DNA of 64,000 nt. Source: Botryllus schlosseri (Eukaryota). The position numbers and the translations under genes are program-made. Positions 3,390-51,368 of the stretch are shown piece by piece. The stretch's first letter is position 1; every line of letters begins with the position of its first letter. Under the pieces are notes generated by a model. It was not told where the DNA came from. It made no database searches and was given only the letters and a program-made list of their open reading frames with translations. The stretch is from positions 28,274,001-28,338,000 of the forward strand of contig CM119371.1 in the NCBI GenBank assembly GCA_051294905.1, read 5' to 3'.

Positions 3390-3694
3390 TCGGTGATCAG
3401 ACAAGGAAACAGGAGAATCTTTTCCGGTCCATTATTTCTCAACTTGGAAAGACTCAGTGGAGCGACGTTCGCATGGAATTATACACCGTGATTTATGAAT
3501 CAAACAACGAGAATCTAATGAAACAACTTTCCGAGATCAATGTATCAAACATCAAATTGAACCGGGGTGAAGTACACGTTGTTGGTTCACTGATTGCCAG
3601 GAGCAGGCGTCTCCGTTCTTCGAGTTTATCGAGCTGCCACATAAATGCAGACGACATGCATATATTTGGAAAATACCTGGAGGCCCGAATTCAG
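3390..3694 (+). CDS. NLR-like gene A, post-NACHT (HD2/first LRR) exon; the NACHT exon would lie upstream of the window
   Basis: Acceptor catcacag| and donor |gtgagt, phase 1 to 0. The translation GDQTRKQENLFRSIISQLG...ELYTVIYESNNENLMKQL...LSSC...ARIQ aligns almost without gaps to the exon at 51067-51368 that follows the NACHT exon. Confidence 0.8.
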
Positions 3695-5481
3695 GTGAGT
3701 TGACGACAAACGAGTATCAGAGTAAAATAATTTTTCTCGTGAAAACTGGTATGCACTAGTAACCCTTTCTCAAAACGATAGTAGGAGAGTGTTCTGGTAT
3801 CTACCTATTTTGTAGTTGCCACAGATTGTCGCTAGGGTTGTTTAAAAATTTTTTTCAAATTTCACTCGCTCAGTGATACAATTGCCAGGTGGCCTAAGAA
3901 AACGCTATACACCAAACTTCAGTCAATTCCGACCAGTAAAGGCCGTGCAATCTTGAATTGAAGTTTCTAATTGAATTTTTTGAATTTATAACTTATCAGC
4001 CCTATCTGTGACAACAAATCTAACCGCCGACGCCGACCGTGTAGCTATAGCCTTATAATATAATATAATGGTTATGGTGTATTTAGTGTAACCACATTGG
4101 CTACGATTGTCAGTTGTTTCTTGTCCCCCACTATGTACTATACCGAAATTAGTACAGTGGGTCAACCAGTTCCCCATAACCTACCACTGTTTCGATAACG
4201 AGGTTGAGTCAGGTCAAATCGCAACGAAAATGATATCACAGTGATATTCGGTTCCACGTATACATTGGCTGCTGTGGTTTGGAAGCTAACAAATTCTGCC
4301 AATAGCCTGGTAAAAGGCAGCAACGAGTAACTGTCAGTAATCTTGCGAAGAAATTCTGGTAACTTGACTTTGTAGGTAAATTAGGTTATCATTACATATC
4401 TAAATGTAAAATAACAAACTACTCGCAGGTATTGCAGCAACCAGTAATTCGTTGCAAAGTTTACAAAAATTTATTTGTAAATCTACCAGATTTATTACAG
4501 TGTAGAAACGTTTTACCCTATACTAAGCTGTGATCTGATAGGTAACGTATTATATGTCGATTTGTTATTTCAAGATAACGAATATAGCCACGACAAATTC
4601 CCTACTCATTCCGTCCACAGTCGAGCAATAGGTTAAATCATTGCTGCACACTTCAAATTTAGCTCTTCTCGAAGACCGTATCACCGACGACTGTTTAGGT
4701 TCATACTAAACGGAATTTACAAATAACCAAAAGGGCAATTGGGAAATGTTCATGTAGTTCTTGTGGTACTGCATTCACAAACATGCAAATGATGCTTTGC
4801 ATTGCTGTAAGAAAGATGCATTGATTTGATCAGGAATTTAATAATCTCTAATTTTGTTGTGACATTGTATATTGGAACCCTGCACTTTTAGCAAGAACAG
4901 TGTGTATTTCGACCCGTGTACCACTTCTGATATAGGGGTGTGCTTGTAGGAACGTAGGAAGGATGGGATACAAGCAAGTAGGGTTTATGAACGCGATATA
5001 ATTCTGAATTAGGCTCTGTCTTCGTGCACCATCCTTTGCGACTCTGTGGGTGTAATAGATACGCTATTGTTAAGAGTGCCGCTACTGATCCATGCTATTT
5101 CAAGGGCCTAGACTTCACTACAACAGACGGACATCACCTGAAATTAACGATCAGAGGTGATGTCATCAATATAAGTGGCGATGGTATTTTGGGACATTTC
5201 ACCTGTAAGGTGAGCAAGCAGAATATTTTCATAGAAGCTTTTCCGATCGGACGTACGAAAATCTCGTATATCCGCCCTAAATAGTAGACATGTTTCTGCA
5301 TGTTGCTTTATATGATTTAAAATAGTCTTTGCGCAAGACTCGGACCAAGTCATATGACTCAAAACGGGGTCTACCAAGATAGCCATTTCATTGTAATTTC
5401 AAAGAATAGTAGAGTTCTTGCACTATTATTTTTCGTCTATCAGTACTGGTACTTGATAAAGCTACCAGAAACTGTCTAAAG

Positions 5482-6306
5482 CAGGAGTGGGCAAACTACG
5501 GCCCGCGGGCCGCATGCGACCCGCGAGAGTCTAAACAAACTAATTAAAAATATTGATAAAATGCGTACTAAAAATCGGAATAATGCAGGGATTGGTTAAA
5601 CTTTTTCTTAGTATATTTCACCATAATATAATAAGACAGTGGTTGTTAAACAGAAGGGCGCACCCTCCTTGGAGGTCGTGAAAGCATCTGAAGGGGGTGC
5701 GAAGCTGAGCTCAACTGAATTTTTTTTAGCGCTCCGCGCGATTTACATACAATTCTAAGGTATATACCTCCTATAATACTTTTATATTCAATTTCTGGCA
5801 CGACAGCGCGATCTCAAGGCCCACACAGCTTGAAAGGTTTCAACTGCTAAACATCACAGAAGTCCTAAACGAGACAAAACGAAACAATTAGGGTATTTAT
5901 ATTTTATCTACAAATAGTGGAAGCGTGATTGAAGCTGACATGGTTATGATGCTATCAGCATTGTGTGTCCTGGAACTGTACCAAAAGTGGAATTGGTAAA
6001 TCTATGAACAGATCGCTGCTCACAGATTTAAATTTCAATCCTGTTCTAAGAATAGGGACAAACGACTTTCATCTCTTTAGTTTTGACAAATGGGTTTTTG
6101 AGGCCACTGTTTTTCGCGCTTGTACGATATCATCAGAGTAATGCTTGGTTTGTTTTAAATAAGCATAGCGTGCAAACATGTCATCACTATATAATCTAAT
6201 ACCAATATTGCATTTTTGTGTATAATCCCAATTTTATAAAGTGCGGCCCGCGAATGGATTCAGATGTTGAATGCGGCCCGCGAGCTCGAAGGTTTGCCCA
6301 CCCCTG
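5482..6306. mobile_element. hAT-type MITE (same family as 51423-53539)
   Basis: caggagtgggcaaac...gtttgcccacccctg TIRs, gcggcccg subterminal motifs, perfect TSD gtctaaag. Confidence 0.9.
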
Positions 6307-7722: not shown

Positions 7723-9526
7723 GATTCACATGACATTAACTCGGAACGGTCAACACAACGACTTGGTTTCGGACACGAGTCAGAATACTACGACTTGGAC
7801 TCGACACTCTACTCCGTGATTTGGACTCGGACTTGACTAAGCGGTGAATTGAAGTTTTTGAGGCTTAGTCATATTTGTTAAATGTATGAATGCCAGCATT
7901 CCTAACAATTGTGGAGGGGCTTTGCAGTCATATTCAGTAGAAGTGTATGCGATACTCTCGTTTCTGTAGTTGATTGACACGAGCAGTTTGACTCACGGTG
8001 ATGTTGTTGTCAGTCATCAATTAGGTGGACTGCGATAGATCATAGTCAATTACCAAACAAATTGACATTTCATCGTCAGTCAAATCTCAGAATTACAAGA
8101 CATATTGACGATTAGGAAGTGGTCAATCAAACCCGCACTTAGATACCGTTCCCGGAAATGATCATCGGAAATGACCTTGCCTTGTCTGGCCAACGACGCG
8201 ACATGGACAGGGAATCTCTCAATTCGATATCTGAAAACCATTACAAAATCTTTTATTCAAATCTGAAGCTAGACCTACCACCAATCCCACCGTGATCCCA
8301 ATTCGGAAACTTTCAAAAACCAAAGAAATAAGTTTTCATGCTACAAGTGGCATGGTGCAAAAATCTTTTGTTGTGGTAAGCTCGACCAAGTGATTGTATG
8401 GCAAATGATAATAATAATAATAATTGGTTTATACACCTTACGGATAGATAAACTAATCCAAAGTTAACGATATACGTGCATCAGAGATGGCTTGTAAAGT
8501 ACGACCTAATAATAATAAACTATCCGGCTTTCAGATCATATACGCTAGCTTACATCCGAAAATGGACAATCCTTTCTACCTAATTTAGTAACTGCAACGC
8601 AAATCGATTTAAAATGATATGATCTCACTTTTACAGGAAAGAATACTCGTATTCGAATGGTTTCAAGATTTTCACCGAATGCACATCGCTAAGTTTTTCA
8701 ATAGACTATTCAAGCCAGAAACCATCAAAATCAATGTTAGGTGTGATGATTTGCACACGATAGCAAAGACAATGCGCCAGGTGATTTCTGGACTCTACGT
8801 GTAAATTTATTTGTTCGTGATCGCAGTTTAATTAATCACGTATACATAGCATATGTAACTGGATATAAACTTGCAACTAGTCTCGAAAGCATGAAGTCGC
8901 CGGTTAGCTGCATGTCACCAAGATTTAATTCTGGACTTTCGTAAGACTTTTATTGCAATGCGGGTTTGAATGAGCTCTGGCCATTGCAAGAGTTGCACAT
9001 GGTTAGAAGTAAATTTAGGTTTTGTATTTGAACTTGGATTTGAACATTAAATTCAGAAGGATTTTGATTTGACGGACCATCCCTGCTAAATGATAATTGA
9101 TAGCTTTGGCATTGCCAATCTGCTTCGGAATGGGCAGAATAAGTGACCCACGACCTGAATTCTACAAATTGCAATATACAGATTCATTGGGCACAAGACA
9201 CCAATGTGTTGAGCTTACCGTAATATTGTTTTGAACAATCTCCGATACTTCCAAAACTTGAAGCACGTGTTACCCATTTGCTGCGACAAAAGCAATTGTT
9301 CATTGTGCTAGATAACGAATCCGAAAATGACAAATTAGGCAGTGGTTCGCAAACTGGGGGCATGAACGTATATCTGAAGGGGGCGCGAAGCCGCCTGAGA
9401 GAAATGATGTTTCTCGAACTCGGAATGAGTTTAATTTGTGCTGAAACTTCAAAGTTCTAACTTCGGGAATAATCCTAACTATATCACGGTTTAAATGCCA
9501 TAGTTGCGTCGTACCATACACACATC

Positions 9527-12256: not shown

Positions 12257-12710
12257 ACTTAAATTCGATAAAGTTGATCTTATTTGAAAGCTACTGCCAC
12301 ACTGATTCCGAAAATATACATTAAAATCCAACCAGGGCAATGGAACGCCCTGGAAATACACTTCAAAATCTGAAAATCGGCATTATTCCAAACAATCGCA
12401 GCGACGCAGCACAATGACCATAACAATGGCCCTTGCGTGGTTGCGATTGTTCAGGACAGTGCCGATTTTCAAACTTTGAGGTGTATTTCGAGGGGGTTCC
12501 ATTGTCCTGATTCGATTTTAATGTATATTTTCGGAATCAGTGCGACATTAGCTTTCAAATAAGACCAACTTTATTGAATTTAAGCACGCGGATCGTCAGC
12601 TATAGGATTAGCGATTATGTTGCGTTCAGATTGCTGAGCAGTAATTTCCTCCGGGCAAGCAAGCGTGACGACATGTGTTGCGTATCTATCCGTAGGTTAG
12701 TTATCTATAG
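12257..12710. mobile_element. Palindromic (foldback) MITE, older copy with truncated left arm
   Basis: Self-complementary around ~12415; the right end gcgtatctatccgtaggttagttatctatag matches the neighbouring copy. Confidence 0.8.
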
Positions 12711-12715
12711 TCATA

Positions 12716-13292
12716 CTATAGATTACTAACCTACGGATAGATACGCAGGTCCCGTCGTTACGCTCCGGCAAGCAGTTACACTTGTTGCTGAGCAATCTAA
12801 AAGCTGCATAATTGGTGGTGTTATAGTTCGCGACCCGAGGGCTAAAATTTAATGAAACTGGTCTTAATCGAGAGCTACTGCCGCACTGATTCCAAAAATA
12901 CAAATTAAAATCTTTACGGGGATATGGAACCACCTCAAAACAGCCTACAAAATCCGAAAATCGGCATTGTTCCAACAATGGCACCACCGCAACACGATAA
13001 ACGTAACAATTGCAATTTCACCAATCGATTGTTCAGAACAATGCCGATTTTCATATTTCAAGGGATATATTGACGTGGTTCCCTTTCCCCGACAAGATTT
13101 TAATTTGTATTCTCAGAATCAGTGCGACAGTAGCTCTCAATTAAGACCAGTTTCATTAAATTTCACCTCTCGGGTCACAAGCTATAACACCACCAAATAT
13201 GCTGCTTTTAGATTGCTCAGCAACAAGTGTAACTGCTTGCCGGAGCGTAACGACTGGACCTGCGTATCTATCCGTAGGTTAGTAATCTATAG
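12716..13292. mobile_element. Palindromic (foldback) MITE with ~260-bp arms
   Basis: ctatagattactaacctacggatagatacgcagg... and its reverse complement at the right end; flanked by the direct repeat tcata. Confidence 0.9.
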
Positions 13293-13641
13293 TCATACGC
13301 TAATAATGTTCTTGCTTCAGTCAGACTTGAATATTCGTATCATGATATATTACTGTATGTCTTGATAGTAATGAGTGCATTGGCGGTATTAATAAGACGT
13401 CACATCAGTGTTTTAACGCGGTAGAGGCCTACATCGATCGCATGTTTTGATTTGAAGTGCGTTCTCGTGCCAGTCGTGTGTGTACTGTGTATGAGTATGT
13501 CTACTAGAAATCAATATGTACCATGTACGTACACGGATATATTGTGACGTCACATATGGTCATACAAAATTACGATTCGCCTTCTATAGTACTTGCGGTT
13601 ACAAGCGTCCATTTGTGTCGCTACAAGTGTTTTGACTAGCT

Positions 13642-15732
13642 CAGAGGTCTCAAACACGCGGCCCGCCAGATTATTCTGTGCGGCCCGCAAAGACATTTTA
13701 GAATTTCAAGTATTTGACAATATATAAATACAGATATATATCTTTTCATGTTTAAAAGTTAAAATTCCTTTTCAAATTGCTCCGAGAGCCTGAAACTATT
13801 CATCAAACTTCACCATCACATCAATTGCAAACGCTACCATGCTGTAAAAGATTCACTATTTTGCCACATTTCCAATTCATGATGATAAATCCGGACCCTT
13901 AGATGATTCATGACTGAAATTTGTAAGTTATTGTGACTTGGACGCGAACTTTCGTAGAATTACTCGGACTCCGGCAGACTCGATGACAAAATGAGAATGA
14001 CTCAAGTTGACTCGGAACGCCGTAACTTGGTCACAAATATATGGACGCAACAAACTATTCAAGTGTCATGGGGAATAGTAATAGATCAGAAGGTAATAGC
14101 TTGGTATTCCGCTATCTAAGCAAATCTTTATGGCAACAATTGGCAATTTGGTAGTTACATTTATGGGTCCCTATATCCATGTTATTAAGGTGACTTAAAG
14201 GTACTGACTACTGAATACCGCAGTGGTACGCTCCAACGATGTGACGATGTTCGGCGTTCCGACATTTTTATTACTATGACACATTCAATAATATTTTTAT
14301 ATTGTTGTTTATATGCCCCAATATTCCACGGTATTTGACCAAGGACAATCATGAGATTAATAGCCCACTTATCGGGAGTGTACCCCAATCCTGGATTGGG
14401 CTACACTGCTCAACCATAAATGCTGTGATATCAGATCAATATCGAACATCAATCTGTTAAATTCAAAATATTCATAGTAGCTTCAAAATTATTACGCGAT
14501 AGCTTTTATGAAGACATCATGAATTTTTCCATCCGCATGGTATCTATATCTTATAATTATTATCTATCAAGTACAACGGCAATCCTATTCAAATAGTTAT
14601 AATTGTGATTATCTTTTTCGTGCCAGGTCCAAATTACTCAAAAGTAAATCACATTTTTGCTATGTGTGTTTAATGTCAGTCTGTTAGGTCGGTGGCTTTT
14701 GAATAGGACAATTTTATCCAGTCGAATATGGCCTACTTGGAAAGACATAGAACAGTGGTCGGGAAGCTATGGCTCGCGAGCCATATATGGCTCTTTTGGG
14801 TGGAAGATATGGCTCTTTGACATATTTTCAATTTTGTACTTGATTTTATCGATATTGCAGCAATTTTTTGCTAAATTTTCCTAACAGCTAGAATAATTAT
14901 ACTCGTGGCAGCATAAATAAAAATAAGTATTTGAGAGGTCAAGACAGTAGCGTGTCCAGGGTTAAGGGTTTGGACTCCTTTACAAAATCCTGAAATTTAA
15001 GTTGCTGTAGGGCCAGCGACTAATATCACTCGCGAATTCGATGTACCCGGCATCGCGCGCTGCGTAATCTTGGATGGCACCACACGTTGTTTGATCAGAG
15101 AGAACAACATGACATGTGGACGCCTATATGACGATTTAGTTTTCAAATACATATTGTCTTCCTGATCTACGCCGAGAAATGAAGTGCCTTGGAATTGACA
15201 TTCCAATTACAAATCCAAATTACAAACAACGCTTTGCCACCAACGTTCGTCATTGATTAGTAGCTTTCTAGTACTGCCGTTAAAATGTAGGCGTGTAGTG
15301 CAACGTTTATGTTACCGCCGAATTGAGAAGTCGATCAATATTTAGATTTGTGGAATCAGTGCTACAGTTATATTAGATTAATATCAATTATTATAAATTC
15401 TCAGCTATTTACGATGAATTGCGCTACCACAGGATGATTAGTAGCCTATACCAGTTTTACACAGAAATATGGCGCACGCGATTAATCCCATGTAGGGAGT
15501 TGGAATTTGTACTACCATGACGTCACGAATTTTCAATTGTGACGTGACAAATGATTGACATGTATGGCTCTTTTGGAGTTTAAATGGAAAATATAGGACA
15601 AACATGGCTCTTCAGACGAAAAAGGTTCCCGACCATGCACTGACATAGAATATCCCTATTGATGCTGCGGCCCGCGGCGTCGTCAAAAACTGGAAAATTG
15701 GCCCGCGAGCACATTTGAGTTTGAGACCTCTG
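13642..15732. mobile_element. hAT-type element with a nested insertion
   Basis: TIR cagaggtctcaaac/gtttgagacctctg; TSD gactagct/gactaggt. Confidence 0.85.
14753..15642. mobile_element. hAT-type MITE nested in 13642-15732
   Basis: cagtggtcgggaa...ttcccgaccatgcactg, tggctc subterminal motifs, perfect TSD acatagaa. Confidence 0.85.
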
Positions 15733-19147: not shown

Positions 19148-22100
19148 TAGGGATGGTGTGGGCGTGAACGTGAGGTTCACGTTCGCGTTCTGTGTGTGAA
19201 CCTCAGATATTTTGAGGTTCACGTTCACAAACGAACCTTGGAAGGTTCTGCACTGTGAGCCTTTTTCATATATCACAATTTCCACTTCATTATAACGTCT
19301 TTGATTGAAATTTATTGCAATTCAACTGCGGGCCACTCTATGCATGGCGCTGGCAGCATAAATAAAATCAACACTAAACTAGGGTTGCCATATTTTTGTG
19401 GGGCAAATTCCGGACACTCTTTAGCGCCAACTAGCGGATTTCAAAATGAGGTGTAACACAGTGACAGTCAATATCACGTCACACTAGCAAAGCATTGCCC
19501 ATCGACTGTATACACTATACAGGAATGACGTGGAACATATGTCATGAATTGGGCCATCTGTAATGTGAGCTCTGGTGATTGCTACTTGCTAGGGTTTGCA
19601 ATAGATACCTCTACGGGTCTGATGAAATCATCTGGCGGGCCGTGTCTGACCTGTCAGGATTGTGTTTGACAGCCCTGCTATACAGTTAGGTCGGTGAGGC
19701 TATCTGTTTAAGTGTTTTAATCAGGTCCGAAACATTATCCCCCCCCCCCCTTCCGTCAAAAAAGCACTGATCTTGGACCCACCATAGGGTAGTCGATGTA
19801 ACTTGTTGGGCACTTCCTATATGCATGTAGCTGTTAAATTTCATGTGTAAATTCTGTCGATAATATTGATTCTTCGATATATTAGACTACTATAAAATGC
19901 ACCAGCAGATTGCACATCCGGTGATTTCCAACCTTTTATGCTCGTTACCTCATTTCCTACTTGAAAATATTCCGCGAAAATTCAGCTTGCCCAAACTTAC
20001 TCACGGCCTAGGAAGCTGATTACGTCCCACATCGTCGCGATCTCCAGATAAAGGCGGACGACTCCAAGATTTGGAACCACTGTCTGTGATTGAAGCATCC
20101 ATTCGGCCTTAACCAACTCTAGGAATATACCGTTAGCTTGTAATTTCGATTACAATCAGACTTATTCAGTAAATGATGGTTATTTATATTTATTTTGATT
20201 GCATTTTTGTCGAGGGTGGTGCCTGGAGCCCATACTAATATCATTATACGTTGCATTAACTCGCGCGCGGCGCGAAGAACAATTTTGAACAGCATAAATC
20301 TGCTTGAAAATAATATTGTTTATGTTGATTTACGAAAAACTTTTGAGACTGCTTCAAGCCTTCAAAATTCCGGACATTTAGGCCTATTTTAGAAATTCCT
20401 CCCGGACACAGATTTTTCAGTGAAATTCCGGACATGTCCGGGAAATTCCGGACGTATGGCAACCCTACACTAAACGAGCATACACCTTGACAATCTCAAA
20501 AACTTTACTTGCTCCGTTACAAAAGTTTGCTCGAAATATCCAGCTTTCCGTTTGTGGACTCTCTGCTGTGAGCTTGACCCGAAGTGATACAACTTCAAGA
20601 GCGAAATACACTGCATGTAGTCAGCGAACGATGCTTTGTCAATCAATCAATGGAATTGATATTGTTGACTGATGTAAAAAATCTAGATGGTGTACTGGGT
20701 CAATCTTGACTTCATATGTTTGTTGTATCATACGAACAAAAAACGTGCGATTGGAGTGCTGGCTACTGCTGTATAACTTGTTTACGGGGTAATATCGGCA
20801 GCAAGTATAGAAGCCGGCCGTTTTACACTACGCTCAATATCAACGTTGCAATACTCAGACGCTGAATACATTGTCCCGTCTGGCCTAGACCGTTATTGCG
20901 TAAGCTCATAGTCCCTTGCAAGTCCTTGTCGAAATTGTAGGCCAAACTACACAAGATGTTAATTTTATGGGATAATCATATCAGTTGAACTGGGGCACCC
21001 CAAACCGCCCAATTGTAGAGGTGCCGAGCTTGAAAAAAGCCCCAAATTATGTTGCAAATTAACATAAATTAAGGCGTATTCTTTTGAAACTTTTCCAACA
21101 TTTTTCAGTTTCTTTTCGCGCTTTGCGCGATTTAGTGTCACTAGATGTCATGTTTATTAGGTGCCCTTCTCCGATAAATACGCATGATTTATACAAAATA
21201 GGCATTTCGGCGTCAGCCATTACCGCGCCACGACGTACCAACACATAATGAAGTTTAGGCTAACATGGGACTCCGAAAGGTGTGCTAAAAATTCGGCAGC
21301 GAGAAAACCGATTCAGTCATGATTGATCGAAAAAAAATTGGAGCGATTGAGCTACATAAACTCTCTGCTTGCCCTGAACAGAATGAATGTGCTGACAAGT
21401 ACAGGTGAAAACATCCACCCCATTGTAGGGTCTGGGGGAAAAGTCCCTGGAAATTTGTGTTGTCGCCCTGTGAGTGCCCAAGACATACGTTTTTTGGGAG
21501 GGCTGACGAAGTGCTTTTTCGGCCGGACTGGCCGATGGCCGGTATAGTTGTTGTATGCTGTTTTCTTACGGCACGCATTGTATTCGTAGTTTCCATAGTA
21601 GCCTATGCGTCCGGTGGCAGTGGGCCATGAGCAAGGTAACAAGGTGCTTGGTTCGACTCCGAAACGCTTCTTCTCTCGATATTGTCAAAGAGAAGAATAT
21701 TATTCGAGTTGGCGTGATCGGTTAAACCGACGGCATTTGGCGCGAAAGACTGTAAACGACTCTCGGCGGTAGCACGTTTATCTGAACAAAGCAATTTTAC
21801 CTCGACTCAGCAGACTGACTACCATAAAATCACATGGATGCCATCATGGAAATAATTAATTACGATTAAAACCGCTAAATGTCACTTGCTAGCACCATAT
21901 AATTGCAAAAAACGGTTGCATACTCTACATTTTAGCATCATTTCAATTGTAAAAGTTCACCGGTCCGCCAGGACATTTTTCGAAATTTTACCGGTCCGCG
22001 AGGTGAAAAAGGTTGAGAACCACTGATATAGACTATCACCTCACTGAAATGTAGGGATGGAATTAGCAATATGACGTCACGTGACATCATGAGGTTCACG

Positions 22101-22178: not shown

Positions 22179-22881
22179 ATAACTACCGCATGCACACTCA
22201 AAATATGCACCCTACTAGCGGGGAGGTCGAATGTTACATTTTTCCATGGCTACATTTGTCCCCGGTCTTCCCTACTATATACAGCCCTACATTTTCCATG
22301 ACATCTGACATAGCTCTACGGGTAAATGTTATTACATGAACAGAGTGAAGATAAGAAATTGATAGCAATATAAATGCAATTCCCGAACATTTCCGCACGT
22401 CACGCGACTAGACGAAATAAGCTGAATCAATGAACAGTACAACAGATCTCGCTAAAAAGTAGCGACAAAAACATACAGCCTGATGAGGGTGTCGGGGTGA
22501 AGCCCCCCCCCCAACCCCATAAGTTGGATATATCCCCCTAAGGACTAAGACCAACATTTTAGGAGGGCTGACGAAGTTCTGTTCCGGTCCTGCGTACATC
22601 GACGATGGATTTTGACTGATACCCGACCTTATACTGATCAAAAGATGTCTCTGGATTATGAGTGACTGAGTGAATTCGCATAGCGATTAGCTGATGCTAT
22701 TTTGGTCTGTCTTTTAAGCACATATGAAAAGCGTTTACTTATGGATAAATAGGATATTTCCATAAAAGGCCATGTGATATGCAAGCTATAATATGCTTTT
22801 TGAATATAAGAAACAAAGATTGAAATCGAAGTGGCTCACAACGTCCAACTCGTTTTCTACGCCTATATGACACATTTTTAG

Positions 22882-22974
22882 AATGGCAATCTTAAGAAGC
22901 TCATCATATCGCAACCCAAAAATACTCACCTTAATTATTCTCTTGCCGTAGAGAAAAATTGTTTTTCTCGTGAA
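22882..22974 (+). CDS. Gene A putative LRR-like exon (NGNLKKLIISQPKNTHLNYSLAVEKNCFSRE)
   Basis: Acceptor acatttttag|, open phase 0-0 frame with an LxxLxI motif. The donor is either gtaatg at 22975 or a GC-type gcaagt at 22981. Confidence 0.5.
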
Positions 22975-23477
22975 GTAATGGCAAGTTAGAATGGCGCGCG
23001 GCCCACGGTATTTGTTTTTGATTTAGCTTATGCTCAGGTACCTTTGAGCCAAGCTAACCCACGGTCAAAGATTGTATTAGACCCCCAAATCACAAAAATA
23101 CGCATATGGTACTTGCAACCATTGCACATGAATATTTTTGACAAGTTATTAAACTGGAAGGTTTTTCTTTCAGCTCATAATTAGTGGTTCTCAAACTTTT
23201 TAAGACTCGTCTCCCTTTGATGATATTGAACGTTTTTGCGCCCGCCTTATCGTGATATCAAAAAATATTAGAATGAGCAACGAGAATGTCTGCAATCCCC
23301 AAGCATAGTTTGACGTAATGCCAAGTTATAACTGGTAAAGGCTGCTACTTATACTGGACAGAGGCTTGAAACTCGATAATGGACATTGTGTTCTTGCCGT
23401 TATTTGACATGGTGTTGTGACGTGTGATTACTGGTCTGTTACTATAACGATGACGTAATGTCAGATTTCACGCTCAG

Positions 23478-23558
23478 GTGAAAGCATTACTGGTTAATTG
23501 TTACCAAGAGAAGAGCATCGACTGGCAGTCGATTAGCAATTTTGTCAAGAAACATCAG
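23478..23558 (+). CDS. Gene A putative LRR-like exon (VKALLVNCYQEKSIDWQSISNFVKKHQ)
   Basis: Acceptor tttcacgctcag|, donor |gtaaga, 81 nt, phase 0-0. The size matches a single-LRR exon, and a 53-nt intron follows. Confidence 0.65.
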
Positions 23559-23611
23559 GTAAGATTTTATGGTTCACGGAATTTCCGATAATTCTACTTT
23601 TTCTGCTTCAG

Positions 23612-23788
23612 GTTGAACGTCTTGATATCATTTCGAATGGCGATGCTACCGCCACACAATATATCGATGTTGTAAATCACGGGAATGAAATCTCGACTTG
23701 GGGCGTTTGCGTCAATATCCATTGGTCGTTTTATCTTCGTAATCCGGACGACGTGCAAAGCACATTACAAGTTTGTCAGCAACATAAT
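23612..23788 (+). CDS. Gene A putative LRR-like exon (VERLDIISNGD...LQVCQQHN)
   Basis: Strong acceptor ctttttctgcttcag|, open frame of 59 codons, donor |gttcgt, then a 63-nt intron ending in gtacag. Confidence 0.6.
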
Positions 23789-23851
23789 GTTCGTTAACTA
23801 GACTTACCCTTTAAGTCGCAGGCGTATCTTGAAATACGTTTAACCGTACAG

Positions 23852-24038
23852 ATGTGTGTTAGATGTGTGATCGACTGGTTTTATCGTCCTTCGTCTGATG
23901 ATATTAATACCCTCCTCCAATACTCAAAGAAGCTCACTCTCATATATTGGCGGAAGGATGATATTTTGGAAAAATACGACCTCGACAAGATTTACAAGAC
24001 TTCAAACCGCCTCGGTATTGAGCTGGAGGTTTTATGCG
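23852..24038 (+). CDS. Gene A putative exon (MCVRCVIDWFYRP...GIELEVLC)
   Basis: Acceptor taaccgtacag|, consensus donor |gtgagt, phase 0 to 1. Coincides with ORF 23852..24046. Confidence 0.6.
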
Positions 24039-24182
24039 GTGAGTGAATGCACCAAGACGTGTTTTAAACAAATGCAATTTCAAACTAAAAAAATCAATAG
24101 GCTAGTTTTAAAATTACTTCGGAATTGGATTAATATACTTCTGAAAAACACGCAGTATGAGCCTCCGAACTCTTTATACTAG

Positions 24183-24241
24183 ATATGGTCGACATGGAAT
24201 GCTTGGAACCCTTTACATCGTCGTCGCCGCAGCAGCAGTAA
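24183..24241 (+). CDS. Gene A candidate terminal coding exon (DMVDMECLEPFTSSSPQQQ*)
   Basis: Acceptor ctctttatactag|, phase 1 compatible with the previous donor, TAA stop at 24239-24241. Confidence 0.4.
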
Positions 24242-25386
24242 TGCCGCGTATAGTTTTGTATCACTTGAAAATAAGAAATGTTTTGATGATGATGATGATG
24301 ATGACCGTCGCCCGTAAAATTGCTGCATGCTGATGTAGTTCTGGTCTAAGATATTCTTTGACCTATTTAAGACAGGATTCGGGAACCTTTTCGACAAAGG
24401 AGCCATATCGGTCCTGTATTTTCAATCGTAAATTCCCGCATAGACATAAGACAGTGTCAACTGCGGCGACAAAATCGAATATGTGTGACGTCATCATGAC
24501 ATAAAATTGAGTTTCCGTATATGTTATTAGTCGTTTAAGTCATGTTTAATGTGTTTGTTGGCTACACTCTCGACCGGTGATTCCCATATGCGGCTCCAAG
24601 GTAACCTGCTTGAAGCTCTGAACGACCTCTAAATGCGCCACAAAATATAACAATGGGCGATTGAAGTATGATTCTATGAATAGTTGTAGCCAATTTTTGC
24701 ATATGAATGCGAAAATGGGGGATATCAGTTTTGTCTAAACCCGTCGAAGGCCGCTTCTGAAAACCGGGAAAGATAATTCTTGCAGAGAAGCGTCGGACCC
24801 ATGAATGAAGTCTCTTCAGACATGGATATATCTTGAGTTCTGCTGGTGATAGACCTTTATATATCGTGAAGAGTGAATTTCGACACAATTTTCCTAACAT
24901 CAAAATATCGGCTCATAGTCCGGTAAAAATTGCTGCTAGTCCAATATTACTCAGCTTATATCCGAATAATTCCCCACAAACAGGTGTAATAATTCCTGAA
25001 AGGTATAAAGAGCTTTTACGTAACGGCATAACAGTATATTGTAGTAATGATATGCATTTTCAGTTTATTTCAATGTATAATCTGTATATCTGCGTCCATG
25101 AATGCTGAAGTAACCGATATATAACCTAGAAAAGTCTACGTGCATGCTTTTGAATTAGCAGGATGGTGAGATCCACAGGTAGGCTAGCTTCCAATAAATT
25201 TTTGTTATAAGTAGCCTACTCTAGTGTTTTCATGTGGCTCCGTACGTACTCTGAAGTTTGAAAGGCGGCTCTGACATCCAAAAAGGATGGGAACCACTGC
25301 TCACAAAAGCCGCTATGCGCTTGGAAAGACTAGCAGTACTCTGAAATCGCATGACCTACTAATGAAATTGAATGAAATTGTTACTG

Positions 25387-25390
25387 ATGG
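25387..25390 (+). CDS. Gene B candidate start (ATG G followed by donor gtgaga)
   Basis: ATGG|gtgaga gives a phase-1 donor compatible with the exon at 25975. This is speculative. Confidence 0.25.
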
Positions 25391-29385: not shown

Positions 29386-29983
29386 TACTAGTAGTATACG
29401 TATGGTATATCTTACGCCAAGTCTGAATCGGCATTCCAGTTGTTGAGTCTTTAACATTTCTGACAGATTTCCCCCGTCTTATTTGAAAATAGCAAAAAAT
29501 GTTGAACATGACATCAATTTAGTTCAGGGTAGGTTGCATTGAGGTTACAGGCACAACAGCTACTCAGCGCACCGAGCTTAAGGCTACTGACAAATCTATG
29601 AAGTAATGAATGACTTACACGAGGTAATTGCTCTAAATCTTCAAGGATCATAAAAAAAATTGCTTAAATGAAGTTGAAATAAGCCTACACTCCGTTAAGC
29701 GCGACTGCTGGAATTTGAATTTGGCGAGCTTTCTTGAATACGAATTTTTTTTCAACAATTGTCTTCTCAGAATGGTGGTGAAGCACATGTTTAGTCAGAA
29801 TTCATACAGACTTTGTAAATTTCTCGTGCCCTCCCTGAGAGCCTCCCGCGCCCCCCCAGGTTGAGAACCACTGAATTAGACTGAAATCCGGATATCCAAT
29901 TCCAATCTAATTTGCAGAATGTTTCTACGTTAAATTTAAATTCCAATCCAATTTGTACATTTCTCGAGTACGGTACTGGTACA

Positions 29984-32900
29984 CTATGGAATGTGACTAT
30001 GGAACGGAAAGTCCCGTTTTCCCATTGTTAAGTCACGCTCGACTGAATCTAGCGGCTTTGGGCAACAATCGAACAATTTGCCTTACGTTAAATGGCATAT
30101 CACACTTATAGATACTCGACTTCGATAACGAAATTACTAGACTAATCAGTCAGTGGTAATCTTGAAACTTGCTACAGTGTTAGATGACATCATCAGGATA
30201 AATTAGGAAGCTAGTCGCTCATCTGGGTATGCAACACAATCAAAATCCACATGGACCGATAGCGGCTTTTACGAAAAATCCGTTACGCGCTAGGCTGCGC
30301 GCACCTATATACTCGACTTCGATAACGAAATTACCACCCTAATCAGTTAGTGATAATCTTCAAATTTGCTACAGTGTTAGATGACATCATCAATATATAC
30401 AATTCGAAAGCTAGTCGCTCATCTGGGTATGCAACACAATTAAAAGCCACATATAGACCGATACCGGCTTTTTCGAAAAATACGTTACGCGCTAAGCTGC
30501 GCTCACCTATATACTCGCGTAAAATCCACTACCGGTATGCGATAGCGCACTTTGCGCAAACCTATGCAATATACAAATACACGCAACTTCGAATGGGCAT
30601 TTCGGCGTCGGCCATTATTTATCACCCTATTGGGGGCCCAAGAACAACGTTTTGGGGGGCCTGACGAAGTGCTGTTACGGTCCTGCATCCAGCCTATAGG
30701 CCTACCTGCGGAACAGATTTTACGCAAAAATCTGTGTTGCTCTATAGATTTTGAAGGTGTTTCCATAGCGGGAGAGATGACCAGATTTCGTATCTATTAT
30801 TCGGATTATGCGTTCTAGCTCTGTGCGAAATTTTTAGGCTCTTCCTACACAGTTGGATTAGTAATTTCGTTACCGAAGTCGAGTATGTATTGTATAGGTG
30901 CGCAATGCGCAGTGCGCACACCCGCACAGCCTAGCCAATAACGGATTTTTCGCAAAAGCCGGTATCGGTCAATGTTGATTTTGAATGTGTTGAATACGGA
31001 GATGAGCGACTAGCTTTCGAAGTGTATACCTTGATAATGTCATCTAACACTACGGCAAGTTTCAAGATTGCTACTAACTGATTAGGGTGGTAATTTAGTT
31101 ATCGAAGTCGAGTATATAGGTGCGCGCAGCCTAGCGCGTAGCGGAGTTTTAGCAAAAGCCGCTATAGGTCTATGCGGATTTTGATTGTGTTGCATACCCA
31201 GATTAGCGACTAGCTTCCGCATTGTATATCTTGATAATGTCATCTAACACTGTAGCAAGTTTCAAGATTACCACTAACTGATTGGTCTAGTAATTTTGTT
31301 ATCAAAGTCGAGTATCTGTAAGTGTGATATGCCATTTAACCTAAGGCAAATTGTTTGATTGTTGCGCTGCGATTGACCAAAGCCGCTAGATCAGTGGTTC
31401 TTAACCTTGCCCCCAGCGCCCCCCAGGGGGCGCTGGCGATCTTGAAGGGGGGCGGAAACGCTCAGGGGGCGATATGGGGGGCGCTGGGCTCAGGGGGGCG
31501 GTATAGGGGGCGCTTGAGAAAAATGGCTTCGCAGTAGATGATGTGGTGATAGGACATACTTGATGAGTATTCAGAGCAAATTAACACCGAAAACTTCGTT
31601 ACATATAACCTTTAAAATACATATAGGTTTAATTGTCCATGGGCGCATAAATGACTGACACCGAATGTTCCTGTCTTGGCAATCTGAACCCCAGAAGACG
31701 AATTCCATCTGGCAGGAAAAAATTATATGTCAGTGAAGAAATACCAATCTGAAATCGTGTGCGTCTTTTAGTTTAGTACGATTGGGCGACAGGGATATTG
31801 CTGTTGGGCGATATCCCCGTTGGGCGATTCTATATTTTTTGATATTGCAGACAGGGGGTCACGAAATAACATCATGCAACGAAGTCATACCAACGGGTTC
31901 GCCCGCCCGAATATGTTTAATTATTAGTAACGGGCCCTACAGTTTCCAAGAAACCTCACAATGTTCGCTTTAAGTTTTGATGAGTCTGCGCACACTCAAC
32001 AACTCACTGCGCTGACCCTTGGACAACAGTGCGTAACGACTAAAAAAAGGTAATAACTCCGGATTTGTTGTGCGCAACGTAGATTTTCTGTGTGCAGAGA
32101 CCGTGTCAGCACTGCGCGCGTGCGCAGCTTAGAGGGAACATTGCACCTCACTCAGCTCTACCGGTAAATGGGTTTACGTGAGCAGAGAGAGGATAAAAAT
32201 TGGTCTCAATTTACATGCAATTCCCGATTATATTGACCAATTCAATCATTAATTATTGAAATTTTTCGCACTTCGCGCGAATAGGCGAGAATAGCTGCCT
32301 CAGTAAATGGACACCCAATGTAAATACCTAATAGGCTATCAGCAAATAGCGGACAGCCTACTGGGGGTCTGGGAGTGAAGTCCCCCGGAAGTTTGGTTTA
32401 TCACCCGATGGGGGCCCGGGACCAACGTTTTTTGTTTGGGGGGGGGGCTGACGAAGTGCTGTTACGGCCCTGGTAACGAATAATTGTACCGGCGGGCACG
32501 CCCGAATATGTTTAATTATTAATTACGTGCCCTTTATTTTCCTATACAACAGCTCACTCAGTGCTACTGGTAAATCCGATTACGTGGGCTGAGAGGATAA
32601 AAAGTTTATAGCGACTTATATATGTAATTACCACCTATTCACTCATGCATTATGGAAAATTTTGGCACCTAGGGCGACCATGCCACACAAACTTTGCTGA
32701 CCATCAAAATCACGATATGGGGTTCGTAGGGGCGAAGCCCTCAGAAGATCGGTTTATCACGCTATGGGTGCGCAAGGCAATCGTTTTTAGGGGGGTTAAC
32801 GAAGTGCTGTTACGGCCCTCCCTCTTACTCATTGTCTTTATTACATTCCTTACAATATGAAGTTGGGGGGCGCTGGAGCACGATAATTTTCGAAAGGGGG

Positions 32901-33001
32901 CGCTGGAAGAAAAAAGGTTAAGAACCACTGCGCTAGATTCAGTCGAGCGTCATCTAACAATGGGAAAACGGGAGTTTCCGTTCCATAGTCACATTCCATA
33001 G
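29984..33001. mobile_element. Foldback element with ~530-600-bp inverted arms built from ~200-bp tandem units
   Basis: ctatggaatgtgactatggaacggaaa...tttccgttccatagtcacattccatag; 5-bp direct repeat gtaca on both sides; right arm interrupted at 31392-32930. Confidence 0.9.
31392..32930. mobile_element. hAT-type element inserted in the foldback right arm, itself containing fragments of the 52038 family
   Basis: TIR cagtggttcttaacctt/aaggttaagaaccactg, gggggcg motifs, perfect TSD cgctagat. The left arm shows the empty site. Confidence 0.92.
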
Positions 33002-33009
33002 GTACACAG

Positions 33010-34019
33010 TAGGGATGGTGTGAACGTGAGGTTCACGTTCGCGTTCTGTGTGTGAACCTCAGAATTTTTGAGGTTCGCGTTCACAACAGAACCTAGGTTG
33101 GTTCTGCACTGTGAACCTTTTTTCATACATTACAATTTTCACTTCATTATAACACCTTTGGTTCAAATTTATTGCATTTCAACTGCGGCATAGCGCTGGC
33201 AGCACAAACAATCAACACTAAACGAGCATGCACCTTGACAATCTCAAAAATGTTACTTGATTTGTTAGAAAAGTTTGCTCAAAATATCCAGCTTTCCGTT
33301 TGTGAATATTTAGTGGCTCTCTGCTGTGAGCTTGACCCGAAATCTCACAACATCATGAGCGAAATACACTACATGTAGTCAGCGAATGATGCTTATTAAA
33401 CCAATCAATGAGATTGATATCGTTTTCTGATGTAAAAATCTAGCAGGCGTACAGGGTCAATCTTGTACAGGGTAAATCTTAATGTATCATAAAACAAAAG
33501 TCGAGCTATTGTGGTGTTGGCTACTGCTGTATAACTTGTTAATGGGGCAATATCGGTAGCAACTAGCAAGTATAGAAACCCGTTGTACATTCTGCTCAAT
33601 ATCCATGTAGCAACACTCATACATACACATACACATACATTGTCCGGTCTGGCCTAGACCGTTAAGGCGTAAGCTTATATTCGCTGTCAAGGCATCCTCG
33701 AAATTGTTGGCAAAGCGACGGAAGATATTGATTTTATGGGATTATTATATCATTTGATTGCCTCAGTAGATACATTCAGCGACTTTTAAAACGTCAATAT
33801 GTACTTCAGCATTGTGGCATTATGTGGCCCGAGTCGTCGCTAGGTATCGTGTACTGTACATTAATTCAGGTTATCACTTCATTGAAATATACGGTTGAAA
33901 TTAGCAATATGACGCCACGTTACGTCATGAGGTTCACGTTCGCGTTCACACAGAACCTTTCAAAAAGCTTCGCGTTCACACGAACCTGAACCTTTCAGAG
34001 GTTCACACCATCCCTCCTA
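33010..34019 (+). mobile_element. tagggatgg-family hAT element, uninterrupted copy
   Basis: TIRs, perfect TSD gtacacag; homologous to 19148-22178 and 58243-58767. Confidence 0.9.
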
Positions 34020-34024
34020 GTACA

Positions 34025-37000
34025 CAGTGCGAAACGAGCGAAGTTTGCTTTACAGGCAGCATTTGCTATTCTGCTGGTTATGAAAATTACCTCTGATTGG
34101 ATATGAACTGAAAATATGTTAAAGGTCAAAGTCTTGTCAGATTTAGAAATTCTAATTCTAATCTAATTTAAAAATAAAACGGCAAACATATAGTTCTAAT
34201 TCGACACTATTTTGAGAACAAATGTTTTAGTATAATTTGGAAAAAATTGGCAACTCTAATTCTAATTTTAATCTAATTCGGTAACAGTGAAATTTTCTAG
34301 CTGTCAAAGTCTGTCTAGCAAGGGTCGTTTGCTTATGGTGTCAGCGCCAGTCGAGATATTGTTAATAAGAGCCTTCCCAACGTTCATTGGTCTGGCTCAC
34401 CACATACTGCAAACTCTCCAAACTGAGCCCGCTTTGCGGTAGTGCTTGGACTATGGTGACGGTTCAATTTCGCAGTAAGGGTTGGTTCTCGGGTTATAAT
34501 TAGAGCCCACCTTGGCTATATGCAATAGATATTGCATTTTGACTAATTTATTGATGAAGGTGCTAGCTATCGGTATTGGATCAAAAAATTCAACATCGTG
34601 TTCTTTCCAGTTATAATGCCCATTTGCCGTTCATTATTGTATCGCATGGCCAGTGCCGGGCACCCAGTTATGATGCGAGTGTAGACATGAAAAAATGAAT
34701 TTACTTGAATGTTGTTTTATTGTAACGATTTCTCTCATTGCGTATTATTTGTTTTGATCAACCCATCAACCCTTAGATAGGGTGATTGTAACTTGCTGCA
34801 TGAATGGATACTGTAGCCATGTTCAAAACTATTTTAGTTGTTGTTGTTGATAAACTGGTTATTGATAAAATAATTTGATGGACTAAAAAAAACCTAAATA
34901 CTATTTCTTCAAACCAAGATTTTCCTACTTCAATAACTTTGTTTCTACGGATTTAATTAGAGCCGAATTCGCTTTGTATCGTAGCCAGTTAAGATTTGGA
35001 TAAATACTTTTTCATAATAAATTTGATATTATCTACTTTTATAGTTACGCTTCGACTAGTTGCAATCGAGCCAGATTTTATATCCAGCATTAATTTGGCC
35101 AAATTTACATTTTTTTCAGGTGGTGAATGGAATTTAAAAAAAAGAAATTTTAGAACAGGCCTTATGGAAACAACATTTTGTATATTGCTTACATTGATTT
35201 TTATTATTGCGATTCCCCTGGCAAAGGGCGATCTCATCATGAATCATGAATGAACAGTCAATTTATTCCAATGGTGTTTTGGGAGTTTAAAGAAATCACA
35301 TTGCTTCACAGCAATTATCAAGCCAAACACAATGTTCATAAAATTTTGAGACTACATAATTTTATACAGTACTCCTCCCAAGCTTTTCTCTAATGTAACT
35401 TCCTATTTTATGAAAGTATATTTCAGTCGCTATATCATTTCTGCAGTATTTGGCTAAATATCAATGGAACCATTATTCTGACAGGGAACAATCAGACAGA
35501 AGTTCCAGATGTAGCGGTCGACGATTCCGGCTTATCTCTTCTGGTCGATAGAGGTAATTAAAGATTTTTACTCGTTAACTCATTCCAGATTCAAAATTAC
35601 AACAAAACCGGTTGCTGTAAGGTGGGTTTGTAAACGCCATTCAGTTCACAGCCATTCCATAGGGCAACTCATGGTCGTTGAACTTAATTTAGTTGGAAAA
35701 GTGTACTGATAAACAAATGAGGCGCAGCTCTAAAAATGCTGGTACATTTGGTATAACGTATATTGTTCTTCGCAAATGCGGACTTAAACAACATACGAAG
35801 ATGTAATATGACACATATGACTGTTCTCCGTATGATCTACTCAGTAACATGCTTATAAAGTGTGTTTAGAGCAATGGTACTCTGCGAGGCAATTTCATGG
35901 GGTCCGTGAGACCTTCACCTTTGCAAAATGATTGAGAACCTGATTTGTATTTTTTTTAATTTGGGAAATCATGAGGCAATTTCGCTCCACAACTGCCAAA
36001 ACCTCTTGTCTCACATCATCGGAATAATTGTCTGACATGAAATATCCTACTGTGTAAATTCATTTTAATTGCCAATTTCCCAAAAATTATTGATATAAAC
36101 GTATTGCTCTAGAGACGTTTCCTTGGGGTTTGTGGGAAAAATTAAAGTCTGGAGATAGTAAGGTCAATCAGGTTAACCTGCGTAAAATCTGCGAATTTTT
36201 TTCGCTATGAAGTTGTCTGTCTCATCAAACTATTGAACAGCGGTTTGAAATAAATATTCCTGAAGTATCTTCTCTGATTTGTCCCAATGAAGGGATTGAA
36301 ACCTCACCAGGAAATCCACAGATGAAAGACCAGGCGGAATGAGATAATATCTTTAAAAATATGCTTTTTCATTGTTGGTGCCATAAATGTTGTGATAACA
36401 CCAAAAGTGTCGTCGGAAGCGTTACACGTAAATATTACATTAGTCTCCGTCTATCTATCTATCGTATATCACTCGCTCATATCAAATCGAAGATGCGGAT
36501 TTTCAAGGCACGGCCACGTTCTACAAAAAACACAGCTGCGAAATTAGCTTCGAATAATAAAAATCCACCCAATTTCTACATAAATGGTGTGAGGTTATTT
36601 TCAAGAAAAGTCATTTTGTTGCTGTCTATAGAAACAACATATTTGCACATGACAGATGACGGTTGCGCCAAAATCGAGTAAAATTTTACTTGAACAAAAC
36701 TTGAAAGTGTCCGCAAGGGTTCTTGACGGTCAAAAAGGATTCCGCAAAGACAAAAAGGTTGAAAACCACTGGTTTAGAGAACACCAGAAACAATGACACT
36801 AAACAATTCATTTACAGTCTGATCAGTTATGTGATTAGGCTGAAAATTTCACAAATGTGGTCGACAGAACAGACCATCTTTTTTCCCAAAATTATAAAAA
36901 AAACGGTGATTTGTAAAACAGAATTCTGCCAGAATCAGGCTCTGAACTCTGCATTAATCTCACTCTAATCAATTTCAAATTGATATTTATCGACAGTATG

Positions 37001-49354: not shown

Positions 49355-51066
49355 GTCAGGATTATAAGTCGCATAGGTCATATCATGATTGTTGTCTGTG
49401 GTATTCATGGTGATTGTCGATTCCAACGGACATTTAGGCTACATCAAATCGATTTTCTTTATTTTGATTCCTTAGCTTGCGACTTAGGCTACAGCATATC
49501 CCACTTCTAGGCTTTTTATAAGAAACCGGTCACGCAGTTGAGATGGCGAAGAAGAGCCTGGTTGGACCCCCAACACTTAGGGATTTGGGAGTCCGACTCG
49601 AATCCGCAACCAATTGGTATTGTAGCTATGGATTATATGACCACGCTATCTCCCCACTTTAGGCATGTCGTGTCAGAGCGTGTAAAATTCGTAGTATTCT
49701 AAACCAGTGTTCTTCAACCTTTTCCGTCGTGGTACGCCCTTATAACGTTTAGCCGAAACTCGTACACCCCTGACCACATATTACAGTATTACACGGTTCC
49801 GTATAGTAACCCTAATCCAGGGGTGTTTATTTTTTTTGCTAATCTAGGTCGTATTTTGATTACATAAATAGCATGCGGCCGCATTCCGACGAAGAGTCAT
49901 GATAGCTCATCTGGACGTCATTATACTCATGATAAAATAGGCCACTGGGAACTTCGCACCGTGTAGAGCTCTTGTGGTGCTCTGTGCCATTACTGATTGT
50001 ACATTAAACGCTCTCATATTTGAGATCTCATTTCATGCTGGCGACGTGATACTTTGTGATACGATTGTTGATATATAATGTGCTTTCGAATTCTCTACTA
50101 GTTGCTGACGATTACCCCTGACGAGTGTCAGTCGTTAAATATTTGGGTTCATTTCAATATGAATATACTATTTAATTAAGGCACTTCTATTTAAATCCTT
50201 GATTCTTCGATTCGAAAGGCATATTATACATGCCATATATTTTATCTCCAAATAGCAGCACAACACTAATGAAATATTCGCAGGATATAGAGATGTTATT
50301 CGTAGAACCCTATATATGTTTTCAACACCATGTAACTTCAATACAACCGTTCAGCATTGGTGTTTTAGTCTCCGAGAGTAACTAACTTTTAATACATTTT
50401 TTCTTGAAACATCCTCACGATGCACTTCGTTACGTCCTCCGAAACTGGTGTTGATGTCACAGGCTCCTAATTCTTGTTGACAGGGTTAGAAACACGACAT
50501 GGCTTTCAAGAAGTTGCGAGTAGTATATGAGCAATTGGACATATTTCGTATTTTCCGTCTTTGCGGACGTGGTAGTAATTCTTGTTACAAATTTCATTTT
50601 TGATAAAAATGCTCTGAATGATTCAAGCATCCTCATATTTACTCAGCATTGCTCCCAGTGCCGAATGAAATCGTTTGGTTGACACTCCTGCTTTTAGTGA
50701 AAACAATACCGTGTCAAGAACAAATGCTGTGCCATACAACGTCAATATTTCAGTTCTTCAGCAGTGTCAAGTATTCGTGTGGAGCCGTAGTTAGCATTCT
50801 CTCCCGAATTGATATTTCTGTTGTCAGAGAAGCTTACTGAATTTACGATTGATGTGTTACGTGAAGAAGCAATATAAATGACATACGTATGGCTAAATAT
50901 TTCATATTTTGGTGTGAGGAGTACGAGGTGGTCTAGTCTGGTCGACCTCCGATCACGCAGCAATATCAACACCAGGGTCATCCCGGTGTGTACCGTCAGA
51001 TCCTACAGATATATTGATTTTGAAATTGTGAACATAACAGCTTACTGATGTAATTTGTTGTGTCAG

Positions 51067-51368
51067 TCTCAGATCGGAAGAAGAAACAAGATTACATTTC
51101 TCGCACAACTCTTTCGCAATTTGGGACGATCGTCGAAGGACACGCTCGCGAGGAATTATACGCTGCGATTTACGAAACGAATGACGACGATTTGATCAAA
51201 AATCTTTCTGTTATCGATGTGTCTCTTCATCTTTTCCGACGTGCTAAAAATCATATTATTGGATCATTGATAGCAAAAAGTGGAGGACTCAAATATTTGA
51301 GTCTGCGTTCTTGCGACGACGACGACAAATTTTCCATAATCACAAAATGCCTGACAAAGAGAATTGAG
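51067..51368 (+). CDS. Gene B post-NACHT (HD2/first LRR) exon
   Basis: Acceptor ttgttgtgtcag| (phase 1, joins the NACHT exon in frame), donor |gtgggt. Contains the LRR-like LKYLSLRSC and is paralogous to 3390-3694. Confidence 0.85.

Follow-up and report, generated by a model that had tools for sequence, protein, structure and literature searches.

Do two NACHT receptor units that lie in tandem in the genome of Botryllus schlosseri belong to two neighbouring genes, or can they be read as one? The question is raised by a stretch of 64,000 nucleotides (C1:28274001-28338000 of a 495-Mb assembly), called the window in the following, with positions counted from its first base. An earlier note on the window had described tandem 'NACHT-LRR' paralogues whose exon phases also allow one fused frame, and had treated two genes as the simpler model and the fusion as secondary. 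In our analysis, the window is best explained as the inner part of a conserved two-unit NACHT locus. As we read this locus, a first NACHT exon (just upstream of the window) would be followed by a short tail of non-canonical type, two linker micro-exons, a second NACHT exon and a second tail; this last part of unit 2 finishes approximately 10 kb past the window end. We give a probability of about 0.5 to the reading of both units, at least in part, as a single double-NACHT frame, and when related loci are compared, this fused reading appears to be better supported than the two-gene model.

Two further loci are collinear with the window across both units: C10:11.50-11.56 Mb (minus strand; C10a in the following) and C14:19.55-19.62 Mb. 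Between the tail of unit 1 and the NACHT exon of unit 2, the three loci have only two short blocks in common, here called linker micro-exons 1 and 2. The elements on the path from unit 1 to unit 2 are:

23852 to 24038, plus strand: last large tail exon of unit 1, ending in a phase-1 donor (G/GTGAGT); 81 genome matches
24044 to 24046, plus strand: in-frame stop two codons behind this donor; at the same place in six of nine loci, three codons on in two and six codons on in one
25975 to 26022, plus strand: linker micro-exon 1, phase 1-1, 48 bases, motif W-x-Q-L/V-G; intact splice sites behind a unit-1-type tail exon in nine loci
35485 to 35553, plus strand: linker micro-exon 2, missed by the earlier note, phase 1-1, 69 bases, acidic, with V/I-P-E; AG/GT borders kept in C10a, C14 and a further locus, C8
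47996 to 49354, plus strand: NACHT exon of unit 2, phase 1-1, 1359 bases; Pfam PF05729 with 63.3 bits (cut-off 26.7), P-loop GSGKT

What goes beyond chance is the conservation of the exon pair joined by 24038 and 25975 in nine loci. The tail exon ends in ...TGC G/GTGAGTGA in the window and in ...TGT G/GTGAGTAA in C10a and C14, a consensus phase-1 donor. Micro-exon 1 was searched for in the genome with a 23-base IUPAC pattern, which returned 8 matches in all compared with 5 for a reversed control pattern; the five genome matches with at most two mismatches each lie behind such a tail exon, and a profile search across 20 fetched tail loci identified four more loci. At all nine loci, the tail keeps its phase-1 donor, and micro-exon 1, with a length of 48 or 75 bases, retains acceptor, frame and a GT donor: 23852-24038 and 25975-26022 form a conserved exon-intron-exon unit. 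The introns between tail and micro-exon have the following lengths:

Window, 1936 bases; C10a, 2710 bases; C14, 1072 bases
C8, 167 bases; C2, 182 bases; L032, 188 bases
c10b, 89 bases; L033, 81 bases; L035, 81 bases

The short introns are of ordinary size, since the neighbouring introns of the same gene measure 53 and 63 bases. The joined frame of tail and micro-exon is open in seven loci by computation and in L033 and L035 as judged by eye. Most simply read, the tail exon of this subfamily would be an internal exon, with a splice to the micro-exon. The junction of 24038 with 25975, proposed in the fused reading of the earlier note, has real support from the comparison of loci (9/9); the onward path that had been drawn through 26261-26368 fell away, and the path runs through 35485-35553 instead.

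Micro-exon 1 has 48 bases in the window, C10a and C14, with a strong acceptor and either GTGAGT or GTGGGT as donor. Micro-exon 2 is 69 bases long in the window, 60 in C10a, 69 in C14 and 66 in C8 (donor form G/GTAAT in the first three), and it supplies a phase-1 donor for the NACHT exon in these four loci; in C10a it sits 625 bases before that exon. In c10b (C10:12364800-12369000), a compact locus whose linker measures 2.9 kb in all, the donor of micro-exon 1 and the NACHT acceptor match in phase directly, with one other candidate exon in between. All linking exons, including the 1359-base NACHT exon itself, are phase 1-1. An nhmmer profile of either micro-exon block found one match per locus and nowhere else in approximately 290 kb, apart from a weak copy of block 2 before a solitary paralogue (C5), which contains a stop and is uninformative.

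None of the nine micro-exon 1 peptides and none of the four micro-exon 2 peptides contains a methionine. The acceptor and first residues of the NACHT exon are conserved in 11/11 aligned paralogues, and there is no conserved methionine here either: the reading frame of the NACHT exon therefore has to come in through a phase-1 donor further upstream and, as the micro-exon peptides offer no start, the frame of unit 2 must be entered from upstream. When the window, C10a and C14 were compared, no conserved end or start exon was found between the unit 1 tail and micro-exon 1, or between the two micro-exons. Spliced-leader trans-splicing onto the acceptors of the micro-exons or of the NACHT exon was considered as a way to start unit 2 and was rejected, as no in-frame ATG follows these acceptors in the window; c10b alone has an in-frame ATG at the start of its NACHT exon.

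The pair of units is old. Unit-1 NACHT exons of the window, C10a and C14 have 65-71% mutual identity and unit-2 NACHT exons 57-60%, compared with 45-51% between the two units. A maximum-likelihood tree built from 14 NACHT exons places the three unit-1 exons in one clade (100/100) and those of unit 2 in a second (100/99). Because the two sets form separate clades, the two-unit pair predates its three copies. The tree, the collinear loci and a search for the NACHT family all bear out that the window holds tandem NACHT paralogues. This search gave at least 116 matches to NACHT exons of this type in the genome (with 93 of 212 candidates scored); such counts are lower bounds and clear underestimates, because the intact second-unit NACHT exon of C8 escaped three whole-genome searches. 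Its absence from these searches had suggested that several loci lack a second NACHT exon, an idea that was withdrawn once the sequence was examined: the exon (L054 877-2376; C8:3093876-3095375) has an intact frame of 499 codons and matches Pfam NACHT with 53.9 bits. It is very divergent, with 39-41% identity to all others, and sits on a long branch of the tree, which makes its placement unsure. Intact second NACHT exons are present in five loci: the window, C10a, C14, c10b (first 116 amino acids seen) and C8. At four loci (C2, C1:11.2 Mb, C1:12.1 Mb and C8), the second unit has exons of the type that follows the NACHT exon. In C10a, the unit-1 NACHT exon is split by approximately 4.5 kb (reverse-strand 7866-8051 and 12583-13824), and the inserted stretch has repeat-like blocks in common with sequence 29 kb upstream of the window.

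In the window, the frame stays open from the donor at 24038 through 25975-26022 and 35485-35553 to the acceptor at 47996. The most likely reading is a single transcription unit, in which the donor at 24038 would be joined to 25975-26022, then to 35485-35553 and finally to the second NACHT exon at 47996; the resulting open frame would include two NACHT modules and measure about 1,640 residues or more. Retention of the intron after 24038 would bring in the in-frame stop two codons on and yield a clean one-unit protein. The donor at 24038 could in this way decide whether a single or a double receptor is made. Both one-unit and two-unit products may exist; a splice-dependent choice would fit the conserved donor and stop. 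The conserved exons, their phases and the open frames are what the sequence shows; that these splices would be used, and in which proportion, we infer. A stronger version would see the members of a subfamily of ascidian-type NACHT receptors as obligate double receptors, in which two diverged NACHT-plus-tail units in one polypeptide, two dedicated micro-exons and a stop-codon splice choice make up a built-in sensor/helper pair; we offer it tentatively and consider it rather unlikely.

How much of this could already be read from the exon chain? The nine exons that the earlier note had chained from 3390 to 51368 are, as it said, phase-compatible and stop-free: AG stands before and GT after 9/9 exons, and the 2660 bases contain no stop in one frame compared with 45 and 56 in the others. 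By itself, an open chain of hand-picked AG/GT-bounded segments is within chance. Two members of the chain (22882-22974 and 26261-26368) have no counterpart in C10a or C14 and are not confirmed as real. Together with the proposed terminal exon of the upstream gene, the unsupported exons are:

22882 to 22974, plus strand: exon of the earlier note, unsupported; open frame and AG/GT borders, no counterpart in C10a or C14
24183 to 24241, plus strand: terminal exon of the upstream gene (gene A) in the earlier note, unsupported; no similar candidate peptide after the C10a or C14 tails
26261 to 26368, plus strand: exon of the earlier note, unsupported; its one genome match is itself, no counterpart in C10a or C14

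Three exons had been missed (5105-5209, 8613-8798 and 35485-35553); since all are frame-symmetric, the frame of the chain is unchanged by them.

The two-gene model had placed the end of unit 1 at a stop at 24241 and the start of unit 2 at 25387. The former is not supported by the paralogues: the 24183 exon is not conserved, and any end of unit 1 in this region would be the conserved stop at 24044-24046. The latter is possible in the window, where one candidate is found:

25387 to 25390, plus strand: candidate own start of unit 2, ATG G/GTGAGA; a similar single candidate in C10a, compatible with chance

The gap of C14 has no own-start candidate with a GTRAG-class donor. Among the six loci with short introns (81-188 bases), the 89-base gap of c10b contains no ATG followed by a phase-1 GT, the sole candidate in C8, L033 and L035 would leave an intron of about 8 to 16 bases, which is impossibly short, and C2 and L032 have weak donors only (GTCAAA and GTTAGA): an own start in the gap is absent or geometrically impossible in four of the six. 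Own-start candidates are no more numerous than expected by chance and are conserved neither in sequence nor in position.

Several observations weigh against a joined frame. A stop conserved immediately after the donor is also what one would see at the end of an ordinary gene. Tails end in GTGAG throughout the family: it is found in 17 of the 20 fetched paralogue tails, with a stop following after 0-31 codons, and 14 of these 17 loci have no W-x-Q-L/V-G micro-exon within approximately 1 kb, so that the motif alone is no proof of splicing. The gaps of the window and C10a (1.9-2.7 kb) hold 2 and 7 polyadenylation-signal hexamers, respectively, and the ATG at 25387 with its good phase-1 donor makes an own promoter and first exon for unit 2 possible; first exons are often poorly conserved. 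Ten relatives from Styela clava were scanned and carry one NACHT each. Finally, four bulk RNA runs of the same species (X3, X5, X7 and X8; approximately 6-13% of each run) were aligned to 22700-35700, and in these subsamples depth was zero or close to it in the exon bins 23568-24435, 25304-26171 and 34418-35700, with no joint at any exon border.

Much of this would be accounted for by two separate tandem genes, with unit 1 stopping at 24044-24046, unit 2 starting at an own first exon (ATG 25387) spliced to 25975-26022, and the phase match of the donor as a relic of the phases used throughout the family. The stop behind the donor, the ATG with its strong phase-1 donor and the similar candidate in C10a, the polyadenylation-signal hexamers in the long gaps and the single NACHT of each scanned Styela clava relative all agree with such a pair, and we regard it as a real, if doubtful, possibility. 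What it leaves unexplained are the six gaps of 81-188 bases: with no usable pair of ATG and donor in four and weak donors in two, they still keep the micro-exon, its acceptor and its frame. The lack of a GTRAG-class candidate in C14 and the start candidates, unconserved and not above chance number, point in the same direction. The micro-exons could also be 3' coding exons of unit 1 only: 25975-26022, either alone or together with 35485-35553, would be followed by an unrecognised, poorly conserved terminal exon, and unit 2 would have a start of its own, likewise unrecognised, nearer to its NACHT exon. Micro-exon 1 does adjoin the unit 1 tail in 9/9 loci, and gaps of 0.6-12 kb to the NACHT exon leave room for an end and a start; the absence of any conserved block between the micro-exons or before the NACHT exon, the close position of micro-exon 2 in C10a (625 bases from the NACHT exon, in matching phase and with no methionine) and, in c10b, the micro-exon 1 donor that is in phase with the NACHT acceptor, with one other candidate exon between them, make this explanation improbable. 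Very improbable in our view is a silent or decaying locus (or second unit) whose open chain has no function at present. The empty exon bins and missing joints in the four subsampled RNA runs are what such a locus would give, but just 6-13% of each run was used; moreover, NACHT exons of 450-500 codons are open and keep their P-loop in both units of three loci that are 40-55% diverged, and in nine loci the micro-exons have retained both their splice sites and their frames. A double-NACHT frame that is used at least in part is the reading we prefer.

Of the RNA reads that did align, 96-99% are partial repeat matches at 26.6-34.4 kb. One repeat family has copies within the long introns (window 19149-20987, 33011-34021, 58235-58787 and 68738-69432) and is also found in the C14 locus; its copies have 70-89% identity at the amino acid level in all frames, and the reads at 26.6-34.4 kb are 90-95% partial matches to them. 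Presumably, these copies are transposable elements. A segment of about 50 bases at 29694-29744 is deeply covered in each of the four runs (bin depths reach about 50). At either side, its reads pass into unrelated sequence and their loose ends agree with one another; the segment has the appearance of a piece of some abundant transcript or repeat located elsewhere in the genome.

What kind of protein would the two units encode? The NACHT exon of the upstream gene, which the earlier note had expected upstream of the window, was found there when searched for, at -2018 to -618. It matches Pfam NACHT with 70.4 bits (cut-off 26.7) and NOD2_WH with 25.3 bits (cut-off 23.1), and NLRC4_HD2 with 17.6 bits, which is under the cut-off; no helical match of the NOD2_WH type was listed for the unit 2 NACHT exon in the Pfam scan. 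Neither NACHT exon has a Pfam match to Death, CARD or PYD, and the micro-exons are too short for such a scan. A three-way comparison of the loci gave nothing convincing for the 5' exons of unit 1. Of the label 'NACHT-LRR', the first half is well founded (63.3 and 70.4 bits); the second half is not, as 0/7 tail exons match Pfam LRR models at E up to 0.1 when scanned singly, a scan of little power with 27-62 amino acids each. Because the tail exons match no Pfam LRR model exon by exon, 'NACHT plus short unclassified tail' is, for now, the better name. A protein search for spliced relatives of the tail exon gave no match.

Besides those on the linking path, the following exons were assigned to the two units:

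3390 to 3694, plus strand: unit 1 exon after the first NACHT exon, phase 1 in and 0 out; 65% and 61% amino acid identity to C10a and C14, respectively
5105 to 5209, plus strand: unit 1 exon missed by the earlier note, phase 0-0, donor at 5209 tentative; in a conserved block (5099-5242; C10a 52%, C14 53%, collinear)
8613 to 8798, plus strand: unit 1 exon missed by the earlier note, phase 0-0, acceptor at 8613 or 8637; 58-63% amino acid identity to C10a and C14
23478 to 23558, plus strand: unit 1 tail exon; 56-59% amino acid identity to C10a and C14, also matches the unit 2 tail at window 73620-73700
23612 to 23788, plus strand: unit 1 tail exon; 33 genome matches, 61-64% identity to C10a and C14
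51067 to 51368, plus strand: unit 2 exon after the NACHT exon, phase 1 in and 0 out; 131 genome matches, 51-53% identity to C10a and C14
56164 to 56262 (about), plus strand: unit 2 exon, phase 0-0; in a conserved block (56143-56277; C10a 64%, C14 69%)
56384 to 56554 (about), plus strand: unit 2 exon, phase 0-0, donor tentative; C10a 61%, C14 48%

The exons 3390-3694 (305 bases) and 51067-51368 (302 bases) are paralogous and have the same phases, with 41% identity over 100 amino acids (E 2e-18), which confirms the paralogy seen from the letters. The tails are short, with approximately 245 residues past the first post-NACHT exon. From the positions of the matches in C10a and C14, the exons at 22.9-24 kb had at one point been taken for 5' exons of unit 2; this idea was rejected on two grounds: solitary paralogues have these exons 10-30 kb downstream of a NACHT exon, and unit 2 carries separate copies of the three tail exons at window 73620-74172, past the end of the window. 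The exons at 22.9-24 kb are therefore part of the upstream unit.

The ends of the tails differ within the family. In the main-family tail exons L036, L043, L046 and L048 (4 of the 20 fetched tails), the frame after GTGAGT reads ...ESLFGCIVS and stop, a CaaX-like end. Second-unit tails (window 73989-74300, C10a and C14) end in ...LCG/GTGAGT (or GTCAGT, GTGAGA) with no stop directly after; here the frame continues for 7-65 codons past the donor-like end, with little conservation. The C10a and C14 second-unit tails have a short block in common; one copy has it in frame, and the other needs an intron of 40 bases.

The nearest annotated relatives of the NACHT exon are uncharacterised proteins of Styela clava with 31-33% identity over about 440 residues (for example XP_077967979.1, 1184 amino acids, and XP_077976001.1, 1650 amino acids). 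Like the units of the window, the Styela clava proteins have a core of NACHT and helical domain, and a variable N-terminal region precedes the motif that is aligned with the start of the NACHT exon; unlike the window, where neither was detected in the exons, some have an N-terminal Death domain and LRR_6 repeats. With vertebrate NLRs (NLRP/NLRC) the locus shares a NACHT NTPase encoded in one large exon and followed by small, frame-symmetric exons. It differs from them in its short tails with no Pfam LRR match, in that no PYD, CARD or other effector domain was found, and in the two NACHT modules of one possible frame. Animal NLRs are described as proteins with a single NACHT, acting by oligomerisation and sometimes as sensor/helper pairs from separate genes.

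Several NACHT units of a tandem array are also strung together in one frame in predicted fish NLR-C proteins: XP_047435511.1 of Mugil cephalus has 6252 amino acids and 21 matched stretches, and other fish models have 2-6 Pfam NACHT domains. These are automatic predictions from FISNA-NACHT-LRR-B30.2 arrays, distant at 21-25% identity; they may be fused array models, and they have no dedicated conserved linker exons comparable to 25975-26022 and 35485-35553. In read-through (conjoined) genes, also known as tandem chimerism, the last coding donor of an upstream gene joins an internal acceptor of a downstream gene on the same strand. As in the proposed joined form of our locus, the upstream end and the downstream start are skipped by a splice. 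What sets our case apart from conjoined genes is that nine paralogous loci share the arrangement and that several of them seem to lack the downstream start; there, the joined form would be obligatory rather than a rare by-product. Plant paired NLRs are linked STAND NTPase units with NB-ARC instead of NACHT, usually encoded head-to-head by separate genes. They resemble the locus in having two linked STAND NTPase units, possibly working as a pair, and have no homology to it beyond the STAND class. At the level of search listings, the literature on double or tandem NACHT proteins and on tunicate NLRs held nothing on point; a passage of PMC3879445 deals with many NACHT genes per genome, not two NACHTs per protein.

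If the two units are read as one, a chordate would have a new receptor architecture, with two diverged NACHT units in a single chain, and a stop between them that depends on splicing would provide additional control. The locus would, moreover, clearly exemplify how genes can fuse when the second exon of a downstream paralogue is captured. If the units are separate instead, they would form an ordinary tandem pair, together with a lesson on exon phases in NLR arrays. Either way, gene models of this family need the linker micro-exons, and annotation as a terminal exon should not be the default for the tail exon.

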